Assembly: GCA_963664405.1 (NCBI GenBank)
Contig: OY761158.1
Coordinates: forward strand, 5,568,001-5,632,000
DNA length: 64,000 bases
From: Thermoanaerobaculia bacterium
GTDB taxonomy: Bacteria; Acidobacteriota; Thermoanaerobaculia; Multivoradales; Multivoraceae
Direction: 5' to 3'
Within the stretch, counting starts at the first letter, position 1. Each line of letters begins with the position of its first letter. This document shows, piece after piece, positions 3,128 to 10,424 of this stretch. The notes beneath the pieces were generated by a model, which had not been told where the DNA came from, searched no databases, and was given only the letters and a program-made list of their open reading frames with translations. A program made the position numbers and the translations under genes.

Positions 3128-4681
3128 ATGCGCCGAAAATCCGGGATAGAGAGCTACCAAATGTTCCGCGAATCAGGAATCAGCCTCACCCCGGGAGTCG
3201 GCCAACCGCTTTACCGGCAGATCTTCGATCAGGTGGCAGCCCGGGTCTCGAGCGGCGTGCTGACACCTGGCTTCAGGCTCCCTCCGACTCGTGTTCTTGC
3301 CGAGGAGCTAGGTGTTCATCGCAACACGGTCGTGCGTGCTTTCGAAGATCTCGTGGCGGCCGGGTTCCTGGTGTCGGTCGTCGGTCGAGGGAGCTTCGTC
3401 ACCTCCGCCCCGCTCCCTGCCAGTATTTCGCCACCGCCGTCCCGCCCCTCTCTGCCCTGGGTCTCGCTGGTGTCGCGCGCGGCCTCAGCAGAACCGCTCG
3501 GGCGCGCCGACGCCCTGGCCGGGCCGGCTCCCAGCGGCAACCCGGTCAACCTCAGCCGCATGGAGCCGGCGGGTGAGCTGCTGCCGCACGAGCTCCTCCG
3601 ACGCTGCCTCGATCACGTGCTGCGCGATCGAGCCGCGTCGGCTCTCGGCTATTCGCCGCGGGAGGGCCTGCCGCGGCTTCGTGAGCTGATCGCCGCCGAG
3701 CTCTCTCGCTCCGGGGTCCCGGCCGAGGTCGATGACGTACTGGTGACGACCGGCAGTCAGCAGGCCCTCGATCTGGTAGCGAGAGCCCTGATCGATCCGG
3801 GCGACCCTTTTCTGGTCGAGGAGTCGACCTACAGCGGTGCAATCAACCTCTTTGCGGTGGCCGGAGCGCGTGTCGTCGGTGTTCCGAGCGATGGCGACGG
3901 CCCCGACCCGGCCGCCCTCGAACGTCACGATCGAAGCCGGGCCAAGGGCTTCTACATGATGCCCAACTGCGGCAACCCGACTGGGGCCTGCGTCTCCGCC
4001 GAGCGTAGGCACGCGCTGGTCGCTTGGTCGCGAAGAGCCGGAGTCCCTCTGATCGAGGACGACTACGGCGCTGACCTCAATCTCGACGGTGTTCCTCCGC
4101 CGCCCGCACTCAAGGCCCTCGACAGCGAGGTCATTTATCTCGGCACCTTTTCGAAGAAGTTGATTCCGGCGCTGCGAGTCGGGTTTCTGGTCTGCCCGAA
4201 GGCACTCCGGCGCCAGCTAGTACCTCTCAAGCACGCCATGGACCTGGGCACGTCGGTCCTATTGCAGCACGCGCTGTGCGAGTTTCTCGAGCGCGGCTAC
4301 ATGCGCGCACACCTTGCGAAGGTGCTACCCGAGTATCGCGCGCGCCGTGACGCTTTGGCAGCCGGCCTGAGCGAGGGGTTGCCCGATGGCGTCGAGTGGA
4401 CGCCGCCGGCCAGAGGCTTGGTGCTCTGGCTGCAGCTGCCCGAGGGCAGCGACCCAGGGGCGGTGTGTGAGGAGGCCAGTCGTCGCGGAGTGCTGGTGAC
4501 TCCCGGGGCAATTTACAGCCCCACCGGCCGCAGCCGGCCCAGCTTACGGCTGGCGTTCTGCGGCGAGCCGCCGGAGCGGATCGCCGTCGGCGCGCAGCGC
4601 CTTTGTCGCGCGATCGATGCGGCGGCCGGTCGCGGTCGCGGCTCGGGTTCCACACGAGCCCCGGCCATCGATGTTCTTTAG
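3128..4681 (+). CDS. pdxR: MocR/GabR-family transcriptional regulator (GntR wHTH + PLP aminotransferase-like domain), PdxR-like
   Basis: PLYRQI...[23 protein letters not shown] wHTH; [13 protein letters not shown] and GTFSKKL PLP motifs; directly upstream of pdxS/pdxT. Confidence 0.85.
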
Positions 4682-4727
4682 TGGAGGTCCCCCAACCTGG
4701 GTGGACGTTCTCGATTGGAGGTTAGTG

Positions 4728-5609
4728 ATGCAAGAAGCGACATTTCAAAGCAAAGTGGGTCTTGCCCGGATGCTTGCCGGCGGAGCGATCATGGACGTGA
4801 CCGACGCCGACCAGGCGCGCATCGCGCAAGAAGCGGGCGCGACTGCGGTCATGGCTCTCGAGCGAGTGCCGGCCGACATTCGCCGCGACGGCGGAGTGGC
4901 CAGGGCCAGCGACCCGGAGCGAGTGACCTCGATCCAACAGGCGGTCTCGATTCCGGTGATGGCGAAGTGCCGCATCGGTCACTTCATGGAGGCACGGGTG
5001 CTCGAGGCACTCGAGGTCGACTTTATCGACGAGAGCGAAGTGCTTAGCCCGGCCGACGAAGCCTTTCATATCGACAAGGGCGGCTTTCGCGTGCCTTTCG
5101 TGTGCGGCTGTACCGACCTCGGTGAAGCCCTCAGGCGCATCGGCGAGGGCGCGGCGCTGCTGCGAACCAAGGGCGAAGCTGGCACCGGCAACATCATCGA
5201 GGCGGTCCGCCACCTGCGCGCCCTACGCACCTCGATTCGTCGGCTCGGGACCCTGGGCCACGAGGAGCTGATGACCGAGGCAAAGGTGCTCGGCGCGCCC
5301 TTTCCGCTGCTCGAAGAAGTGGCCAACCGCGGTCGTCTCCCGGTGCCGAACTTCGCCGCCGGTGGTATCGCGACGCCCGCGGACGCCGCCCTGTGCATGG
5401 CGCTGGGTGCGGAGGCGGTATTCGTCGGCAGCGGCATCTTTCTGAGCTCCGACCCGGCGGGACGAGCCCGCGCGATTGTCGAGGCGACCACCCACTGGGA
5501 AGACCCGGCCAAGCTTGCTGAGATCTCGACCGGGCTGGGCGAGGCGATGGCGGGCCTGGAGATCTCGAGCCTGGCCGAGAGCGAGCGCTACGCGACGCGA
5601 GGCTGGTGA
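4728..5609 (+). CDS. pdxS: Pyridoxal 5'-phosphate synthase lyase subunit
   Basis: [52 protein letters not shown]. Start moved to ATG 4728, which follows a GGAGG RBS. Confidence 0.97.
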
Positions 5610-6259
5610 TGCGGATCGGAGTGATGGCGTTGCAGGGGGGATTCGCTCCTCACCTGAACGCCCTCACTCGTCTCGGCCACGAGGCGATCGAGATCCGGAC
5701 CGCGGGCGCACTCGAGGAGGCCGAAGGACTCGTTCTTCCCGGCGGCGAGTCGACCGCTCAGCTCGGCCTGCTCGAGCGCAGCGGTTTGCTCGTGTCATTG
5801 GAGGCTTGGCTCGACAGAGGTGGCCCGGTGCTCGCGACCTGTGCGGGGCTCATCGTGTTGGCGAGCCGGGTACGGAGTCCTAGCCCCGGAGGACGGACCT
5901 TCGGCCCGTCCTCGGGCCCAGCCCCACCTAAAAACTGCTCGCCTGCTGCGCAGGCTCCCAGTCAGCCGAGTCTAGGCCGGCTCGACGTCGAGGTTGAGCG
6001 CAACGCCTGGGGGCGCCAGATGCACAGTTTCGAAGCGGCGAGTGATCGCCATGGTCTACCGCTCGTATTCATCCGCGCACCTCGTATCACGCGGGTTGGC
6101 CCCGCTGCGGAGGTGCTCGACACTCTCGATGGTGAGCCGATCCTGGTGCGACAAGACGCGATCGTCGCCGCCACCTTCCACCCCGAGCTCACCGCTGATC
6201 TCGAGGTCGGCAGGATGGTGTTCGGTGAAGCCGTTCTGGCCCAGCGGGCTCAGGCGTAG
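5609..6259 (+). CDS. pdxT: Pyridoxal 5'-phosphate synthase glutaminase subunit (carries a 26-aa insertion)
   Basis: ALQG, LPGGEST, TCAGLI, RNAWGRQ..SFE, VFIRAP, TFHPEL; TGATG overlap with pdxS. Confidence 0.95.
   Translation: MRIGVMALQGGFAPHLNALTRLGHEAIEIRTAGALEEAEGLVLPGGESTAQLGLLERSGLLVSLEAWLDRGGPVLATCAGLIVLASRVRSPSPGGRTFGPSSGPAPPKNCSPAAQAPSQPSLGRLDVEVERNAWGRQMHSFEAASDRHGLPLVFIRAPRITRVGPAAEVLDTLDGEPILVRQDAIVAATFHPELTADLEVGRMVFGEAVLAQRAQA
5881..5958. repeat. Palindromic (double-hairpin) 78-nt in-frame insert within pdxT
   Basis: AGGACGG-ACCTTCGGC-CCGTCCT and GCCTG-CTGCG-CAGGC hairpins; removing 78 nt restores RVRSPSQPSLG. Confidence 0.55.
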
Positions 6260-6846
6260 TTCGCTTGCAGGAAGCGCTCGCAATTGCGACAGAAACGAAA
6301 ACCGCGAGTGTCGATGATCGCGCGGACGTAGCCTCGTTCGCCGAAGCGGTTGAAGTCGCCTTTGGTCATCGGGCAGTAGCCGCCGTCGGCCGCCCTGGCT
6401 TGGCCGTAGTGGTGCATCAACCCGAAGTTGTGGCCGATCTCGTGCAGGGCGACTTTGAGCAGGCGCGCGGTCGCGACGTCGGAGCTCCGCCCTTGTAGGC
6501 GTTTTGTCGAGACCACCGCGACATCGTTCGAGTTGTCTTTGCCACCGAACATGAAGTTCCAGAAGTCATCGCTGCTTCGATCCAAGAGATCGACCTCGGT
6601 GACACCGAGGATGTGCCCGCCGACCTCGAGGTTCAGCGACTTGGTGAGCAGGCCTGCGTCCAAACTCTCGACCGGAGGCGGGTCGTATTGGACGAGCTCC
6701 GTTTCGCTGATGATGTCGAGAAAGGACTCGCGAATTTTGGCGGCGAAGGCCTCGAACAGGAGGACGTTGAAGGGTTTGCCGACTCGTACCAGCTTGAGGC
6801 GGCTCAAGGCCTCTCGGGCCTTCCTCCTGCCCAGGTGCAGTGTCAC
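6250..6846 (-). CDS. Archaemetzincin-like zinc metallopeptidase (M54-like)
   Basis: ILGVTEVDL, AVVSTKRL, RLLKVALHEIGHNFGLMH, CPM Met-turn, C-terminal FCRNC. Confidence 0.75.
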   Translation of the reverse strand: MTLHLGRRKAREALSRLKLVRVGKPFNVLLFEAFAAKIRESFLDIISETELVQYDPPPVESLDAGLLTKSLNLEVGGHILGVTEVDLLDRSSDDFWNFMFGGKDNSNDVAVVSTKRLQGRSSDVATARLLKVALHEIGHNFGLMHHYGQARAADGGYCPMTKGDFNRFGERGYVRAIIDTRGFRFCRNCERFLQANYA

Positions 6847-6905
6847 CTTCTCGATTGTAACTCGTTCATAGTCGAGAAGCTATGTGTCGGCATGGCGGCG
6901 AGGGT

Positions 6906-7874
6906 CTAGATCGGTGCTCTTGCAGTCTTCGCAGCGGTCTCGGGCAGTTGGACGTCGATGCCGACACAACTACTGCAGGCATTACCCTCATCGTGTTTGT
7001 GCTCGGCCAGGAGCCGGTCTTGGGTAGTTTGATAAACGGGCTCAGAGGAGCGCGGAGTGCGGACGTCGGTCCCTGGACCATCGGTGGAGAGAGGGGACTG
7101 CCGCCAGCTATTGTCCGGCGACCAAAGGCGACCCAAATCAGCCACGGTACCCGGCTCCTGAGCGCTACTGAAGAGGTCGAGAGCGCCGCGGACGATCGTC
7201 AGCTGATCTTCTGGGTCATTCGCCTTGCCGGAGGTGTGGCCGAGGGGATAGTCGACGAAGGCGGCGCGAGGGGGAGCGACCGCCCTGGTGATATCCAGTG
7301 CTGAAGTCAGCGAGGTGGTGGGGATGCCCCGCGCCTCGAGCTCTCTTGCGATCAGACCGACCGATTGGTGGCAGACCGGTCACACCGGAACCAGCAGCGC
7401 GAGCTCTGCTCCTTCTTCTGCGGCGGCATTAGCGATCGCCGGGGCGAGTTTTTCTCGCACGCTGCGCGAAGAATAGATGCCGCCCATGAACGTGAAGGCG
7501 TTGGCGGTCAGGCTACCGACCTCACCCTTTGCCGCCATCGTTCGCAGCGTGTCGATCGGGAAGACCACATTGGGGTCGCGTCGGGCGTCGCTGAGATCGT
7601 AGGCGAAGTGCGTTGCTCGGAGCCGCTCGGTGTCTACATCAGTAGGGACTAGACGAAAAGAGATGTCGTCTTTGAAGTGGAAGGCGATTTGGCCACTTAC
7701 ATAGATCCCGCCCGAAGCGATCAGCGCGATCCGGCTCTCGGCCAGGGGCTTGCGCGGGCGAGTAAAGGGTGGCGGCGCCTCGCTGTGCACCCAGCGGTAC
7801 GGAGGGTAGCCGAGCGCTGAGTAGGTTTCGAGGGTGGCGTCGATGTAATCGACGGGCTGTGAGGTCCGGCTCAC
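6906..7874 (-). CDS. Selenoprotein, glycine/betaine/sarcosine/D-proline reductase selenoprotein B (PrdB/GrdB)-like; Sec at TGA 7380-7382; 322 aa
   Basis: Track ORFs 7380..7874 and 6906..7145 are in the same frame. Reading through TGA gives LLVPV-U-PVCHQSVGLIARELEARGIPT...PPRAAFVDYPLGHTSG. The N-half has KPLAESRIALIASGG and RDPNVVFPIDTLR, typical of the family. Confidence 0.9.
7349..7363 (-). promoter_or_regulatory. Putative bacterial SECIS element of the PrdB-like gene
   Basis: mRNA +17..+31 after UGA: CGGUC-GGUCU-GAUCG stem-loop with loop GU at +23/+24. Confidence 0.65.
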
Positions 7875-7940
7875 TCGATCGTCCTAGCGCCGATCAGGCC
7901 CCATCTGGCGCCCGCGGCGGTGACTTGTCCGGCGAAGGCA

Positions 7941-8753
7941 TCAGCCACCGGCGGCATCGGCCTTTGCGTCTCCGTCCGGTCCCTTCTCCAGCATGTCTTC
8001 AATCATGGCCTTGAATGCAGTGATGGGCTGAGCGCCTCGCAGTTGTTGGGTGACCTTGACCTTGCCCGTGTCGTCCACCCAGCCCAACAGAAAGGTGGGA
8101 GTGGCACTGACTCCGGCGCGCCGCGCCGTAAGCAGGTCTCCGTTCACACGCTCCTTTTGCCCCTGCTCCAAGCAGGATGCGAACTGGCCCTGGTCGAGGC
8201 CTACTTGCTGGGCGTAGCCGGGAAGGTTTTCCGGCTGGAGCTTGGTGTAATTGGCAAAGAGCAGGTCGTGCATCTCCCAATATTTGCCGCCGGCCTGGGC
8301 GCAGGCAGCCGCCTCAGCCGCCTTGAAGGCAAACGGGTGATTGCCGAGAGGGAAATCCATCACCGCGTAACGCACTTTGCCGGTCTTGATGTAGGTCTCT
8401 TCGATCTGCGGGTACGTCTCACGGACGTAGCGAGCGCAGTACGGTCATTGGTAGTCCAGGAACTCGATCACTGCGAGCTGTGCATTCACCGCCCCCTTTA
8501 CCGGCTTGCCGGCGAGGTCGAGGGTGGTATTGGGGGGCACCCCTTGGGGGCGCTTGGCCGGCTGCGTTGGGCGCTGGCTCACAAGCTGCTTGATCTCTTG
8601 CAGGGTCCGCTGGATCGCCTGCTGACCCTGCCTCAGCGCGTCGATCTGCTGCTGAAGGTCGGAGGCATCTTGGCCCTGTTGAGCCACTGCAGAGACCGGA
8701 ATCAGAGTCGCCGCGATCGCGGTCGCCGCCATTCGTTTCGAGATTGTTTGCAC
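7941..8753 (-). CDS. Selenoprotein, DsbA/DsbG-like thioredoxin-fold oxidoreductase with N-terminal signal peptide; Sec at TGA 8445-8447; 270 aa
   Basis: Track ORFs 8445..8786 and 7941..8375 are in frame. Read-through gives VIEFLDYQ-U-PYCARYVRETYPQIEETYIKTGKVRYAVMDFPL...AAEAAACA...YWEMHDLLF...GVSATPTF (cis-Pro loop). GTG start at 8753 follows GAGGAG. Confidence 0.92.
8406..8439 (-). promoter_or_regulatory. Putative bacterial SECIS element of the DsbA-like gene
   Basis: After UGA: lower stem CUGCG/CGCAG (+6..+10 / +35..+39), upper stem UACGUC/GACGUA (+16..+21 / +27..+32), loop CGUGA with GU at +23/+24. Confidence 0.75.
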
Positions 8754-8884
8754 GAGTCTCTCCTCGGTTTGGCTGTCGGCTCCCAATGCCGACTGATGCG
8801 CATTGCGCAGAGGCAGGCTACACCACCTCGCAATAATTAGGCTTCTAGACCCTTGAAATTCGAAAAAGGAATCCCACCTCTAGA

Positions 8885-8929
8885 ATGAAGAGAGAGGGAG
8901 AGGAGGAGGGTCTAGGCCGCCCTCCTCTC
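8885..8929 (-). terminator. Possible terminator hairpin after the LLM gene
   Basis: GAGAGGAGG/CCTCCTCTC inverted repeat followed on the minus strand by a pyrimidine-rich run; no clean U-tract. Confidence 0.35.
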
Positions 8930-8977
8930 GGGGTGTCAATCCGGAGTGTCAGGTCCTGTCTTCGGCTACGACGACTG

Positions 8978-10198
8978 TTAGCCCTCCGTGGTTGGCGCAT
9001 GCTGTTGCGCGTCGAGCGCCTCCTGCGACGGCGGCAGCGTCGGCTCGCGTCCTCTCGTTACGTTGAACGGCTCGGTGTCGATCTCGTCGAGCTTCAGCTC
9101 TCCGGCCAGGACCGCCCGCTTCCACTGTTGGTGCTCTCCCTCTCTGTCGTGGAATTCCGGCATCACCTCGCGCGCAAAGAGCTCGAGGCTGGAACAGATG
9201 TCTTTGTGACTGTTTCTTCCCGCTTGGTTGAGCAGGATCACCTGGTCGACGTTGGCCTGCTCGAGCTCCGCTAGGCGCTCGCGCACGGTCGCGGGCGAAC
9301 CGATGAGCTCGCTACCGCTGCGTTGCGATCCCGCCTCCGTTTTCTTCCACTCCTGGTAGCGCTCCCAGAAGTTGACCTCTCCCGGAGCGAAGGGGCCCTC
9401 CTTGGCGTAGAGCTGCAGGCTGAACTGAAAGAAGGTCCAGCCGTCGGATTTGCGCTGTGCCTCTTCGTCCGTTTCTGCGCACATGAAACCGGCGACCACG
9501 GCGATATTCGGGTTGGTCGCATAGTCACAGAGCTTCTCTTGATCGGTGGTGAAGATGTTGTAGTAGGAATGGACCCAGGCTCTGGCAGAGTCGAGATCCA
9601 CGAACTTGAAGCACAGAGCTCCCATACCGCGGTGCGCGGCGTATTTGATCGTGTCGAGCTGGGAGCAAGCGACCCAAAGCGGCGGGTGTGGCTTCTGCAG
9701 CGGCTTGGGGATCACATTGCGGAGAGGAAAGTCGAAGTAGTGGCCGTGGAACTCCCAACCGTTCTCCCAGAACATCGGTAGGCAGGCGCGTACGGCTTCC
9801 TCCCAGACGATGCGCTTGTCGCGAAACTTCCGGCCGAAGGGGTGGAGCTCGGTCACACTCGCGCCTTCGCCTAGGCCCAGGTCGACTCGTCCGTTGCTTA
9901 CCAGATCGAGGGTCGAGACCCGCTCGGCGACGCGGGCCGGGTGGTTGGTGGTGAGCTGAACGATGCCGTGGCCGAGGCGAATGTTCTTGGTGCGCTGGCT
10001 GGCCGCGGCGAGGAAGACCTCCGGAGCGGAGGAGTGGGAGTACTCTTCGAGAAAGTGGTGCTCGACTTCCCATGCGTAGTCGTAGCCGAGCTCGTCGGCG
10101 AGGGCGATCTGCTCGAGCGAGTCCTGGATGAGAGTGTGCTCGCTGTCGGGGCCCCAGGGCCGGGGTAATTGATGCTCGTAGAAGATGCCGAACTTCAT
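8978..10198 (-). CDS. LLM-class (luciferase-like) flavin-dependent oxidoreductase
   Basis: MKFGIFYEHQ, ADELGYDYAWEVEHHF, RVSTLDLVSNGRVDLGLG, PKPLQKPHPPLW. Start ATG 10198 has a GGAGG RBS; the track's extension runs into a MITE. Confidence 0.92.
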   Translation of the reverse strand: MKFGIFYEHQLPRPWGPDSEHTLIQDSLEQIALADELGYDYAWEVEHHFLEEYSHSSAPEVFLAAASQRTKNIRLGHGIVQLTTNHPARVAERVSTLDLVSNGRVDLGLGEGASVTELHPFGRKFRDKRIVWEEAVRACLPMFWENGWEFHGHYFDFPLRNVIPKPLQKPHPPLWVACSQLDTIKYAAHRGMGALCFKFVDLDSARAWVHSYYNIFTTDQEKLCDYATNPNIAVVAGFMCAETDEEAQRKSDGWTFFQFSLQLYAKEGPFAPGEVNFWERYQEWKKTEAGSQRSGSELIGSPATVRERLAELEQANVDQVILLNQAGRNSHKDICSSLELFAREVMPEFHDREGEHQQWKRAVLAGELKLDEIDTEPFNVTRGREPTLPPSQEALDAQQHAPTTEG

Positions 10199-10257
10199 GC
10201 TCTCGCCTCCAGCGGTCGTCGCATTGTGCCAAAAGCGTATCCCATCCAGCTTCCGGG

Positions 10258-10424
10258 CTAGACCAGTCGTTTCCAAAGTTCGCGCCACCTATCTCGGCCC
10301 CTTCTGCCCGCTGGCGGCGTTGCACCTTCTCGACAGATTCCCAATATGCCTGCGTCGGCGCGCCTTGCCAGCGAACAGAATGACCTCGAGCTATGCGACT
10401 CGAACTTCGGAAACGCTGGTCTAG
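10258..10424. mobile_element. MITE-like palindromic element, copy 1
   Basis: CTAG-ACCAGTCGTTTCCAAAGTTCG ... CGAACTTCGGAAACGCTGGT-CTAG terminal inverted repeats; close second copy at 30597-30774; no transposase. Confidence 0.8.

Follow-up and report, generated by a model that had tools for sequence, protein, structure and literature searches.

Introduction

Four short open reading frames on the minus strand of a Thermoanaerobaculia bacterium chromosome raise the question of whether they are truncated fragments or parts of two intact selenoprotein genes, and, if they are two genes, whether the pair forms a functional unit. The frames lie around positions 6906 to 8753 of a 64,000-nucleotide stretch (assembly GCA_963664405.1, contig OY761158.1, positions 5,568,001 to 5,632,000), which is referred to here as the window. 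An earlier annotation, made from the sequence alone (the original prediction), read the locus as a gene for an exported DsbA-like selenoprotein followed by a gene for an orphan PrdB/GrdB-like selenoprotein. It proposed that the two, possibly with a neighboring M54 protease, constitute a compact selenium-dependent redox module unrelated to classical Stickland fermentation. In this study, this reading was evaluated by homolog searches, comparative RNA folding, structure modeling, and synteny surveys. Judged from these comparisons, both genes are very probably real selenoprotein genes. It is likely that they are two independent, adjacent genes of known families, with probable co-transcription, and that they do not constitute a conserved module.

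Results

Four open reading frames collapse into two genes

Under translation table 11, the region is read as four minus-strand fragments: 8445..8786 (113 aa), 7941..8375 (144 aa), 7380..7874 (164 aa), and 6906..7145 (79 aa). When TGA is read as selenocysteine (Sec, U), the four fragments merge into two frames, 7941..8786 and 6906..7874, with one internal TGA in each. The resulting layout is as follows.

7941..8753, minus strand: DsbA-like (Thioredoxin_4) selenoprotein gene; GTG start at 8753 preceded by GAGGAG; true stop TGA at 7941-7943
7875-7940, minus strand: intergenic spacer of 66 nt; AGGA approximately 9 nt ahead of the GTG at 7874; fold z-score -0.59
6906..7874, minus strand: orphan PrdB/GrdB-like selenoprotein gene; 322 aa, GTG start at 7874, without signal peptide

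The longest open frame of the DsbA-like gene extends to 8786; the GTG at 8753 is the likely start, as it lies behind GAGGAG and fits the start given in the original prediction. The internal TGA of this gene is at 8445-8447, in the context LDYQ-U-PYCA (U114 when numbered from 8786), and that of the PrdB-like gene is at 7380-7382, in the context LVPV-U-PVCH. Both TGAs occupy position 1 of a U-x-x-C motif. The coordinates, motifs, co-orientation, and 66-bp gap of the original prediction, and its collapse of four fragments into two genes, were all correct. No terminator-like site was found in the spacer on the strand of the genes, and the sole such site in 6100-9100 is on the plus strand. As far as this arrangement indicates, the two genes are probably co-transcribed.

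Homologs carry TGA or Cys at the Sec position, and the genome encodes the Sec machinery

A scan of one genome per species yielded 575 relatives of the PrdB-like protein, and the best 80 of these, in species-representative genomes, were used for the codon and synteny counts of this gene. The Sec codon is TGA in 79 of the 80 loci and TAG in the remaining one. When 27 database homologs were aligned, the site was Cys in 16 and Thr in 2 of the 18 full-length proteins; the other nine are gene-caller products that stop exactly at LLVPV. For the DsbA-like gene, 79 metagenome loci were compared, of which 37 have TGA, 39 have TGC or TGT, 1 has CGG, and 2 lack the motif. The Sec column is Cys in all 15 aligned homologs that cover the site, and the two database entries closest to the DsbA-like protein are C-terminal fragments starting past it. 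Past the TGAs, the two genes keep conserved open frames of 157 and 167 codons. Since both families show such a TGA/Cys pattern at the site, which is what the original prediction had expected of true homologs, the in-frame TGAs are not attributable to chance.

The TAG locus is in a Blastococcus tunisiensis DSM 46838 record (L097:4475-4477), where one base of the hairpin loop is altered as well. Gene decay in a lineage that does not decode Sec is one possible reading among others.

The source genome (G000) is a single contig of 6.78 Mb and is 97% complete. As the original prediction had suggested, it was searched for selA, selB, selD, and tRNA-Sec, and all were found elsewhere in the genome, outside the window. 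SelA (423 bits), SelB (340 bits), and SelD (362 bits) score over the curated cut-offs; selD (388007-388930) itself has an in-frame TGA. The tRNA-Sec, with anticodon tca, is at C1:3996757-3996856 (ARAGORN; Rfam 72 bits). A second selD-like gene without an in-frame TGA (G000:C1:565727-566650, locus L002) scores 243 bits, also over the cut-off.

Among public sequencing runs, two from separate studies contain the stretch without change on 10.3-kb contigs; both may stem from the source sample. A diverged strain was found in two further studies; no difference is listed at either TGA, with 35 differences not displayed. In this strain (runs X8 and X9), the contigs over both genes break in the spacer, at window positions 7884-7887, with 24 unmatched letters each; therefore, the intergenic sequence differs there.

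The SECIS element is convincing in the DsbA-like gene and degenerate in the PrdB-like gene

Single-sequence folding was rejected as evidence for selenocysteine insertion sequence (SECIS) elements, as the hairpins scored no better than shuffled sequences (z -0.97, +0.85, -0.98, and +0.27). The assessment therefore relied on comparative data only. An Rfam scan of 6500-9200 (E up to 10) gave nothing relevant. The two regions considered are as follows.

8402..8443, minus strand: SECIS of the DsbA-like gene; core hairpin UACGUC-CGUGA-GACGUA at 8413-8429, equal to the family consensus
7348..7372, minus strand: SECIS-homologous region of the PrdB-like gene; degenerate, with C.A and A.C mismatches, loop GGUC, and a bulged U

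In the DsbA-like family, 34 of 38 TGA sites are followed by the core CGUCCG[U/G]GNGACG, 18-22 nt past the first codon base, and none of 41 non-TGA sites is. The mean local fold energy is -11.45 kcal/mol for TGA sites versus -6.05 kcal/mol for non-TGA sites. The flanking pair changes in a compensatory manner, being U-A in 16 sequences and C-G in 7. The same hairpin occurs in the TGA-bearing orthologs of G008, a genome of a sister genus, and of G051 and G040, and is absent from three Cys forms; in G008, a C-G pair within the stem is swapped to G-C. On these comparisons, the hairpin is a convincing SECIS that is specific to the TGA-bearing relatives.

The PrdB-like family also has a conserved hairpin. 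RNAalifold of 81 sequences gave the consensus AUCAGUC-CGUGG-GACUGAU, which starts approximately 11 nt past the UGA and has 9 pairs. Two of these pairs are compensatory (U-A in 64 sequences versus C-G in 6; G-C in 75 versus A-U in 3). The window copy has C.A at the first of these pairs and, alone among the 81 sequences, A.C at the second. Its energy in the consensus structure is -0.8 kcal/mol, compared with a mean of -5.57 kcal/mol, and none of the 80 others is as weak. An alternative single-sequence fold of the region was no better than shuffles. The statement of the original prediction that both genes have SECIS-like hairpins therefore stands for the DsbA-like gene, which matches its family consensus; the PrdB-like copy is homologous to its family hairpin but carries two mismatches. 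Sec insertion at this copy could be inefficient or could fail. The gene is still read as a selenoprotein gene, because the frame past the TGA is intact and conserved.

The DsbA-like protein is a predicted exported member of the Thioredoxin_4 fold

The DsbA-like protein matches PF13462 with 90.3 bits (cut-off 23.2) and PF01323 (DSBA) with 37.3 bits, and aligns end to end with its homologs. Besides the profile match over the gathering score, it has the U-P-Y-C site and a cis-Pro loop, T229-P230, that is invariant in 18 sequences. The closest solved structures by sequence are the actinobacterial DsbA 4pwo (5e-17), Wolbachia 3f4r, BdbD 3eu3, and the ScsC-type proteins 4xvw/4gxz. Two segments precede the catalytic domain.

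8682..8753, minus strand: predicted signal peptide, M-QTISKRMAATAIAATLIPVSAVA before the cleavage site and QQ after it
8580..8660, minus strand: Gln/Leu-rich helical, coiled-coil-like linker, DLQQQIDALRQGQQAIQRTLQEIKQLV, between the signal peptide and the catalytic domain

The signal peptide was read from the translation, and similar hydrophobic N-termini are found in homologs. It contains no Cys, and hence no lipobox; the N-terminal 36 residues are Cys-free. The protein is predicted from this N-terminal sequence to be exported. The linker is conserved in homologs and may drive oligomerization.

The PrdB-like protein belongs to an orphan branch of the PrdB/GrdB superfamily

The PrdB-like protein matches PF07355 (GRDB) with 35.8 bits (cut-off 22) over profile positions 218-341 of 347. 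It scored below every curated family model: 142.5 bits against TIGR04483 (PrdB; cut-off 300), 43.8 against TIGR01918 (cut-off 65.45), 36.3 against GrdB (cut-off 602), and 36-49 bits across the GrdB/F/H models TIGR01917, NF040794, and NF040795, whose cut-offs are 602-800. Only the Pfam superfamily model is passed, and the protein is assigned to neither PrdB nor GrdB/F/H. Its 223 database homologs are of two kinds, full-length proteins of approximately 300 aa with 45-53% identity and half-length proteins with 56-70% identity. The branch is hosted by Thermoanaerobaculia, Binatia, Acidimicrobiia, Myxococcota, and Pseudomonadales metagenome-assembled genomes.

An AF2 model built from 28 sequences reached a pLDDT of 88.1 and a pTM of 0.89. 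It places the Sec position, in the motif LLVPV-U-PVCHQ, after the strand 158-162 and before the helix 166-181. A Foldseek search of the PDB with the model found nothing at E <= 0.001, and the best hit of a PDB sequence search had an E of 0.08. A wide VIA-align search gave generic Rossmann-like matches only, of LacI type or short-chain dehydrogenases (best Z 8.7, rmsd 3.8, 135 aligned), which are in the common range.

The genome search gave no match to PF09338 (PrdA/GrdE) or to PF04723 (GrdA), although it was run without a positive control. None of PrdA, GrdA, or GrdE was found among the upstream neighbors of 79 PrdB-like loci either. The protein is, on these sequence searches, an orphan without PrdA/GrdE and GrdA, like hundreds of its relatives. 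Since neither PrdA/GrdE nor GrdA was detected in the genome, a classical Stickland role is unlikely, which agrees with the stand-alone, non-Stickland reductase of the original prediction.

A C-terminal CxxC is confined to the Sec forms

The PrdB-like protein ends in a tail that contains a second pair of Cys residues.

6966..6977, minus strand: C-S-S-C, Cys300-Cys303 of the PrdB-like protein, on a low-confidence tail of the model (pLDDT < 50 for residues 307-322)

Of 110 Sec forms of the subfamily (loci L022-L101 and L132-L161), 106 have a CxxC motif within their last 45 residues, versus 0 of 68 full-length Cys/Thr forms. A core-region tree places the Sec forms and the Cys/Thr forms in separate clades; therefore, the association of the tail with Sec counts as one evolutionary event and not as an independent correlation. 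The other four PrdB-like paralogs of the genome, judged from their translations, have no CxxC tail.

Synteny of the two genes is restricted to one sister genus

No DsbA-like relative was found beside the PrdB-like gene in any of the 80 genome loci, 77 of which have at least 1 kb of upstream sequence. Conversely, no PrdB-like gene was found beside the DsbA-like gene in any of the 79 metagenome loci, many of which are on short contigs. Of 60 genomes related at family or order level, only the sister-genus genome G008 has the two genes adjacent. The order there is a luciferase-like monooxygenase (LLM) gene, the DsbA-like gene (TGA), a 110-aa ORF, the PrdB-like gene (TGA), and then a convergent MoeA-type gene, which replaces the peptidase gene of the window. 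The 110-aa ORF (L166:8425-8757) has no Pfam match, and the window has only the 66-nt spacer at this place. In G001, the two genes are on separate contigs and the DsbA-like gene encodes Cys; a distance of 560 kb separates the two genes in G005. In the sister genus g11, 22 genomes have a PrdB-like ortholog, and their DsbA-like relatives are only approximately 40% identical and lie elsewhere in the genome. From homolog listings, a metagenome contig of 6392 nt seems to bear fragments of both genes (P0071 and P0226).

The upstream neighbors of the 79 PrdB-like loci were classified by Pfam. They include Exo_endo_phos in 11 loci (related, Binatia-type), enoyl-CoA hydratase in 8, MaoC in 4, and many others, with no thioredoxin fold among them. 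Clustering all ORFs of the 80 loci in search of a conserved partner gave only lineage-restricted clusters, each in 17 loci or fewer. The synteny survey that the original prediction had called for therefore supported adjacency in one sister genus and gave none in the 80 genome or 79 metagenome loci.

The genes that flank the pair in the window are as follows.

6250..6846, minus strand: archaemetzincin/M54-like metallopeptidase gene, 59 nt downstream and co-oriented; PF07998 29.2 bits (cut-off 24.4)
8978..10288, minus strand: luciferase-like monooxygenase gene, upstream neighbor; PF00296 1.7e-51

The M54-like peptidase scored 55.9 bits against NF033823, below its cut-off of 145. It was rejected as a member of the unit, being found in none of the 80 PrdB-like loci and missing from G008. 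The compact three-part redox module with an M54 protease, as originally proposed, is therefore not supported. The LLM gene also precedes the pair in G008 (L166:5917-7188). In other phyla, 5 of the 80 loci (L052, L056, L073, L094, and L101) have an LLM gene no more than 4 kb from the PrdB-like gene, with 28-40% identity and variable position and strand. A candidate terminator after the LLM gene, a hairpin at approximately 8890-8925 followed by a CU-rich run and not a U-run, was not significant (z -1.34). The opposite strand carries pdxS (SOR_SNZ, 1.7e-97) and pdxT (SNO), at window positions 4617-6259 (plus strand), immediately past the M54-like gene; this is an ordinary housekeeping context.

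PrdB-like paralogs of the genome are paired with other redox selenoprotein genes

The genome encodes five PrdB-like paralogs with one TGA each. For four of the five, another redox selenoprotein gene lies 645-1065 nt away, with distances taken between the TGAs. These neighbors comprise the DsbA-like gene of the window, two AhpD-like CxxU genes (TIGR01926, 128 and 118 bits; cut-off 81.8), and one gene for a Prx-like protein, exported and with both a VVW-U-PYC motif and a DsbD_N domain. The TGA positions of the three pairs outside the window are as follows.

G000:C1, 2771981/2771336 (loci L184/L185)
G000:C1, 5776177/5777052 (loci L169/L180)
G000:C1, 6329307/6330034 (locus L164)

These pairs were looked for in relatives. 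No AhpD-like or Trx-fold match was found within approximately 3 kb of the orthologs of paralog PrdB2 (8 loci, 49-76% identity) or of paralog PrdB4 (2 loci, 72 and 79% identity). A phylum-wide search with PrdB2 at the strict threshold of E <= 1e-40 had a sparse yield, with only 2 other genomes of 300. Another selenoprotein-family match within 4 kb of the PrdB-like gene was found in 1 of the 80 loci of other phyla.

At least 27 recognizable selenoprotein genes were found in the genome by a scan for in-frame TGAs with coding-like flanks, with NCBIfam for 21 candidates and BLAST for paralogs. The scan gave 312 raw candidates, many of them false, so that 27 is the number of recognized genes and not a census. 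Six of the 21 NCBIfam-checked candidates have no family (L176, L177, L178, L181, L182, and L188); by sequence, L177, L178, L181, L182, and L188 resemble non-genes, and L176 keeps a Trx-like W-U-P-P-C. The selenoproteome includes four AhpD-related CFYU proteins (NF041238, 414 and 438 bits for two of them), three UGSC proteins, two deiodinase-related proteins, a ResA-like WAxxUGC relative, AhpD-like peroxidase-related proteins, many Prx/Trx-fold UxxC proteins, and SelD itself. Clustering of selenoprotein genes is general in this genome: 10 pairs lie within 15 kb of each other versus 1.5 expected, and none of 20000 simulations reached ten. The clustered pairs include Trx-fold/AhpD-like and deiodinase-like/AhpD-like combinations. 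TrxC and TrxD are 69% identical, and some clusters (TrxC/AhpD1 and TrxD/AhpD4) may be duplicated blocks.

Discussion

The locus is best explained by two selenoprotein genes of known families whose tandem placement is specific to a lineage and common to one sister genus, and which do not constitute a conserved functional module. Taken jointly over all its parts, we regard this explanation as likely. Several observations weigh against it. The four PrdB-like pairs within 1.5 kb compare with 0.15 expected, and none of 20000 random placements of 27 genes reached four. The pair and its upstream LLM gene are kept in a second genus. The SECIS region of the PrdB-like gene in the window is the weakest of 81, and no positive control accompanied the genome searches for PrdA/GrdE and GrdA.

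The opposite reading is a functional two-gene selenium redox module, in which the PrdB-like protein would be a dedicated partner of the neighboring thiol-redox selenoprotein, as a reductase or electron donor and perhaps through a membrane relay, and the paralogous AhpD-like and Prx-like pairs would follow the same design. The improbable excess of close pairs, the conservation of the DsbA-like/PrdB-like pair in G008 with TGA in both genes, and the lack of a terminator-like site between the genes on their strand speak for it. We nevertheless consider it unlikely, since no other pair was kept in relatives (8 PrdB2 and 2 PrdB4 loci), adjacency was 0/80 and 0/79, and only one of the 80 loci of other phyla had another selenoprotein-family match nearby. 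The 22 g11 genomes, moreover, keep the PrdB-like ortholog with only distant DsbA-like relatives elsewhere. The DsbA-like and Prx-like partners have signal peptides and the PrdB-like proteins have none; with one protein predicted to be exported and the other to be cytoplasmic, a direct redox partnership is unlikely. A broader form of this proposal is also unlikely. Orphan PrdB-like proteins would be general cytoplasmic redox partners that pair, gene by gene, with DsbA-like, AhpD-like, and Prx-like/DsbD_N selenoproteins, and members of the subfamily represented in the window would recycle their Sec-x-x-Cys with their own CxxC tail. If true, the genome, with its 27 or more recognizable selenoprotein genes, would reveal two-gene selenium redox modules of a family not described so far.

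Selenoprotein genes might also cluster for the sake of expression, through regulation by selenium supply or a local benefit to SelB-dependent decoding, in which case the pair would be co-regulated and functionally unrelated. The general clustering within 15 kb agrees with this, and co-localized selenoprotein genes of unrelated families are noted in the part of a 2026 review that deals with selenoprotein operons (PMC13188914). Against it, no shared motif or regulator came to light, certain clusters could be the result of block duplication, and every one of the four pairs within 1.5 kb includes a PrdB-like gene, an outcome not predicted by general clustering; we give this explanation a slender chance. 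That the TGAs are true stops of decayed genes, or sequencing errors, with only truncated products, is hardly credible. The degenerate SECIS region of the PrdB-like gene and the TAG of L097 fit such a reading. They are outweighed by the 157 and 167 conserved open codons past the TGAs, the TGA in 79/80 PrdB-like loci and 37/79 DsbA-like relatives, and the complete Sec machinery. The identity of the stretch in contigs of two public runs, which may be the source sample, and the diverged strain of two other studies, with no difference listed at either TGA among those displayed, point the same way.

For two independent genes of known families, the following mechanism can be proposed. The DsbA-like protein would act as an exported thiol:disulfide oxidoreductase, with Sec as the N-terminal nucleophile of its CxxC-type site (U-P-Y-C), and the SECIS hairpin approximately 18 nt past the UGA would direct SelB and tRNA-Sec to recode its gene. 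The PrdB-like protein is predicted to be cytoplasmic and belongs to a large branch of orphans within the PrdB/GrdB superfamily; its U-P-V-C-H-Q center would lie where a helix begins, within an alpha/beta domain of Rossmann-like type. It may be a selenol/thiol-dependent reductase that works without a pyruvoyl subunit (PrdA/GrdE) or GrdA. Sec165 would attack the substrate, and Cys168 would resolve the adduct to give a Se-S bond. The U165-C168 bond might then be re-reduced by the C-terminal CxxC or by thioredoxin.

Standard gene callers would split or shorten both genes, and databases hold many half-length products of both families. The tandem locus is not a new system; it comprises two previously hidden selenoprotein genes of known families. 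Both have been described as selenoproteins for years. The Sargasso Sea study of 2005 lists 42 sequences of "proline reductase PrdB" (UxxC) and 9 of "DsbA-like" (UxxC) (PMC1088965). The Global Ocean Sampling study of 2008 lists 235 PrdB sequences with 110 Cys homologs, and 63, 18, and 5 sequences of DsbA 1, 2, and 3, respectively (PMC2398784). Only the arrangement could be new, since both families are long described, and the arrangement is lineage-specific. The DsbA-like/PrdB-like pair is not among the selenoprotein operons in section 9 of the 2026 review (PMC13188914). Full-text literature searches found no functional study of orphan PrdB-like proteins. The orphan branch is very widespread, with 575 relatives and Sec encoded by 79 of the best 80, and ocean selenoproteome surveys have probably listed it under "proline reductase" since 2005, although it appears to lack the proline/glycine reductase subunits. 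The clustering of PrdB-like paralogs with redox selenoprotein genes and the CxxC tail of the Sec clade are new to us and worth a note; the two features are handles for a first biochemical test.

Comparison with known systems

The selenoprotein operons of the reviewed section (grdA-grdB, prdB-prdC, frhA-frhD-hdrA, Prx/SelW-like, Prx-like/AhpD-like, SAO, and Tso; PMC13188914) resemble the window pair in having two adjacent same-strand Sec genes in a selenoprotein-rich genome. Unlike them, the window pair is not kept beyond two genera.

The DsbA-like protein shares the Thioredoxin_4/DSBA fold, a U-x-x-C site, Cys-containing homologs, a bacterial SECIS just past the UGA, and predicted export with the marine DsbA-like selenoproteins and with NF041057, the Rcas_1661 family thioredoxin-like (seleno)lipoproteins. 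Its NF041057 score of 106.5 bits falls short of the cut-off (190), which makes it related to that family without belonging to it. It differs in having no lipobox Cys and in carrying a Gln/Leu-rich helical linker ahead of the catalytic domain.

The PrdB-like protein has the same Pfam family and UxxC motif as the environmental PrdB selenoproteins of the Sargasso Sea and Global Ocean Sampling data, as these are listed in the two studies. The environmental proteins may belong to the same branch. With PrdB (TIGR04483) and GrdB/GrdF/GrdH (PF07355), the window protein shares a homologous catalytic region and Sec at position 1 of U-x-x-C. It differs from them in falling under every curated cut-off and in having no conserved neighbor in 79 loci. 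The hosts of the orphan branch, in contrast to those of the PrdB/GrdB systems, are not Stickland fermenters, and the subfamily is distinguished by its C-terminal CxxC tail.

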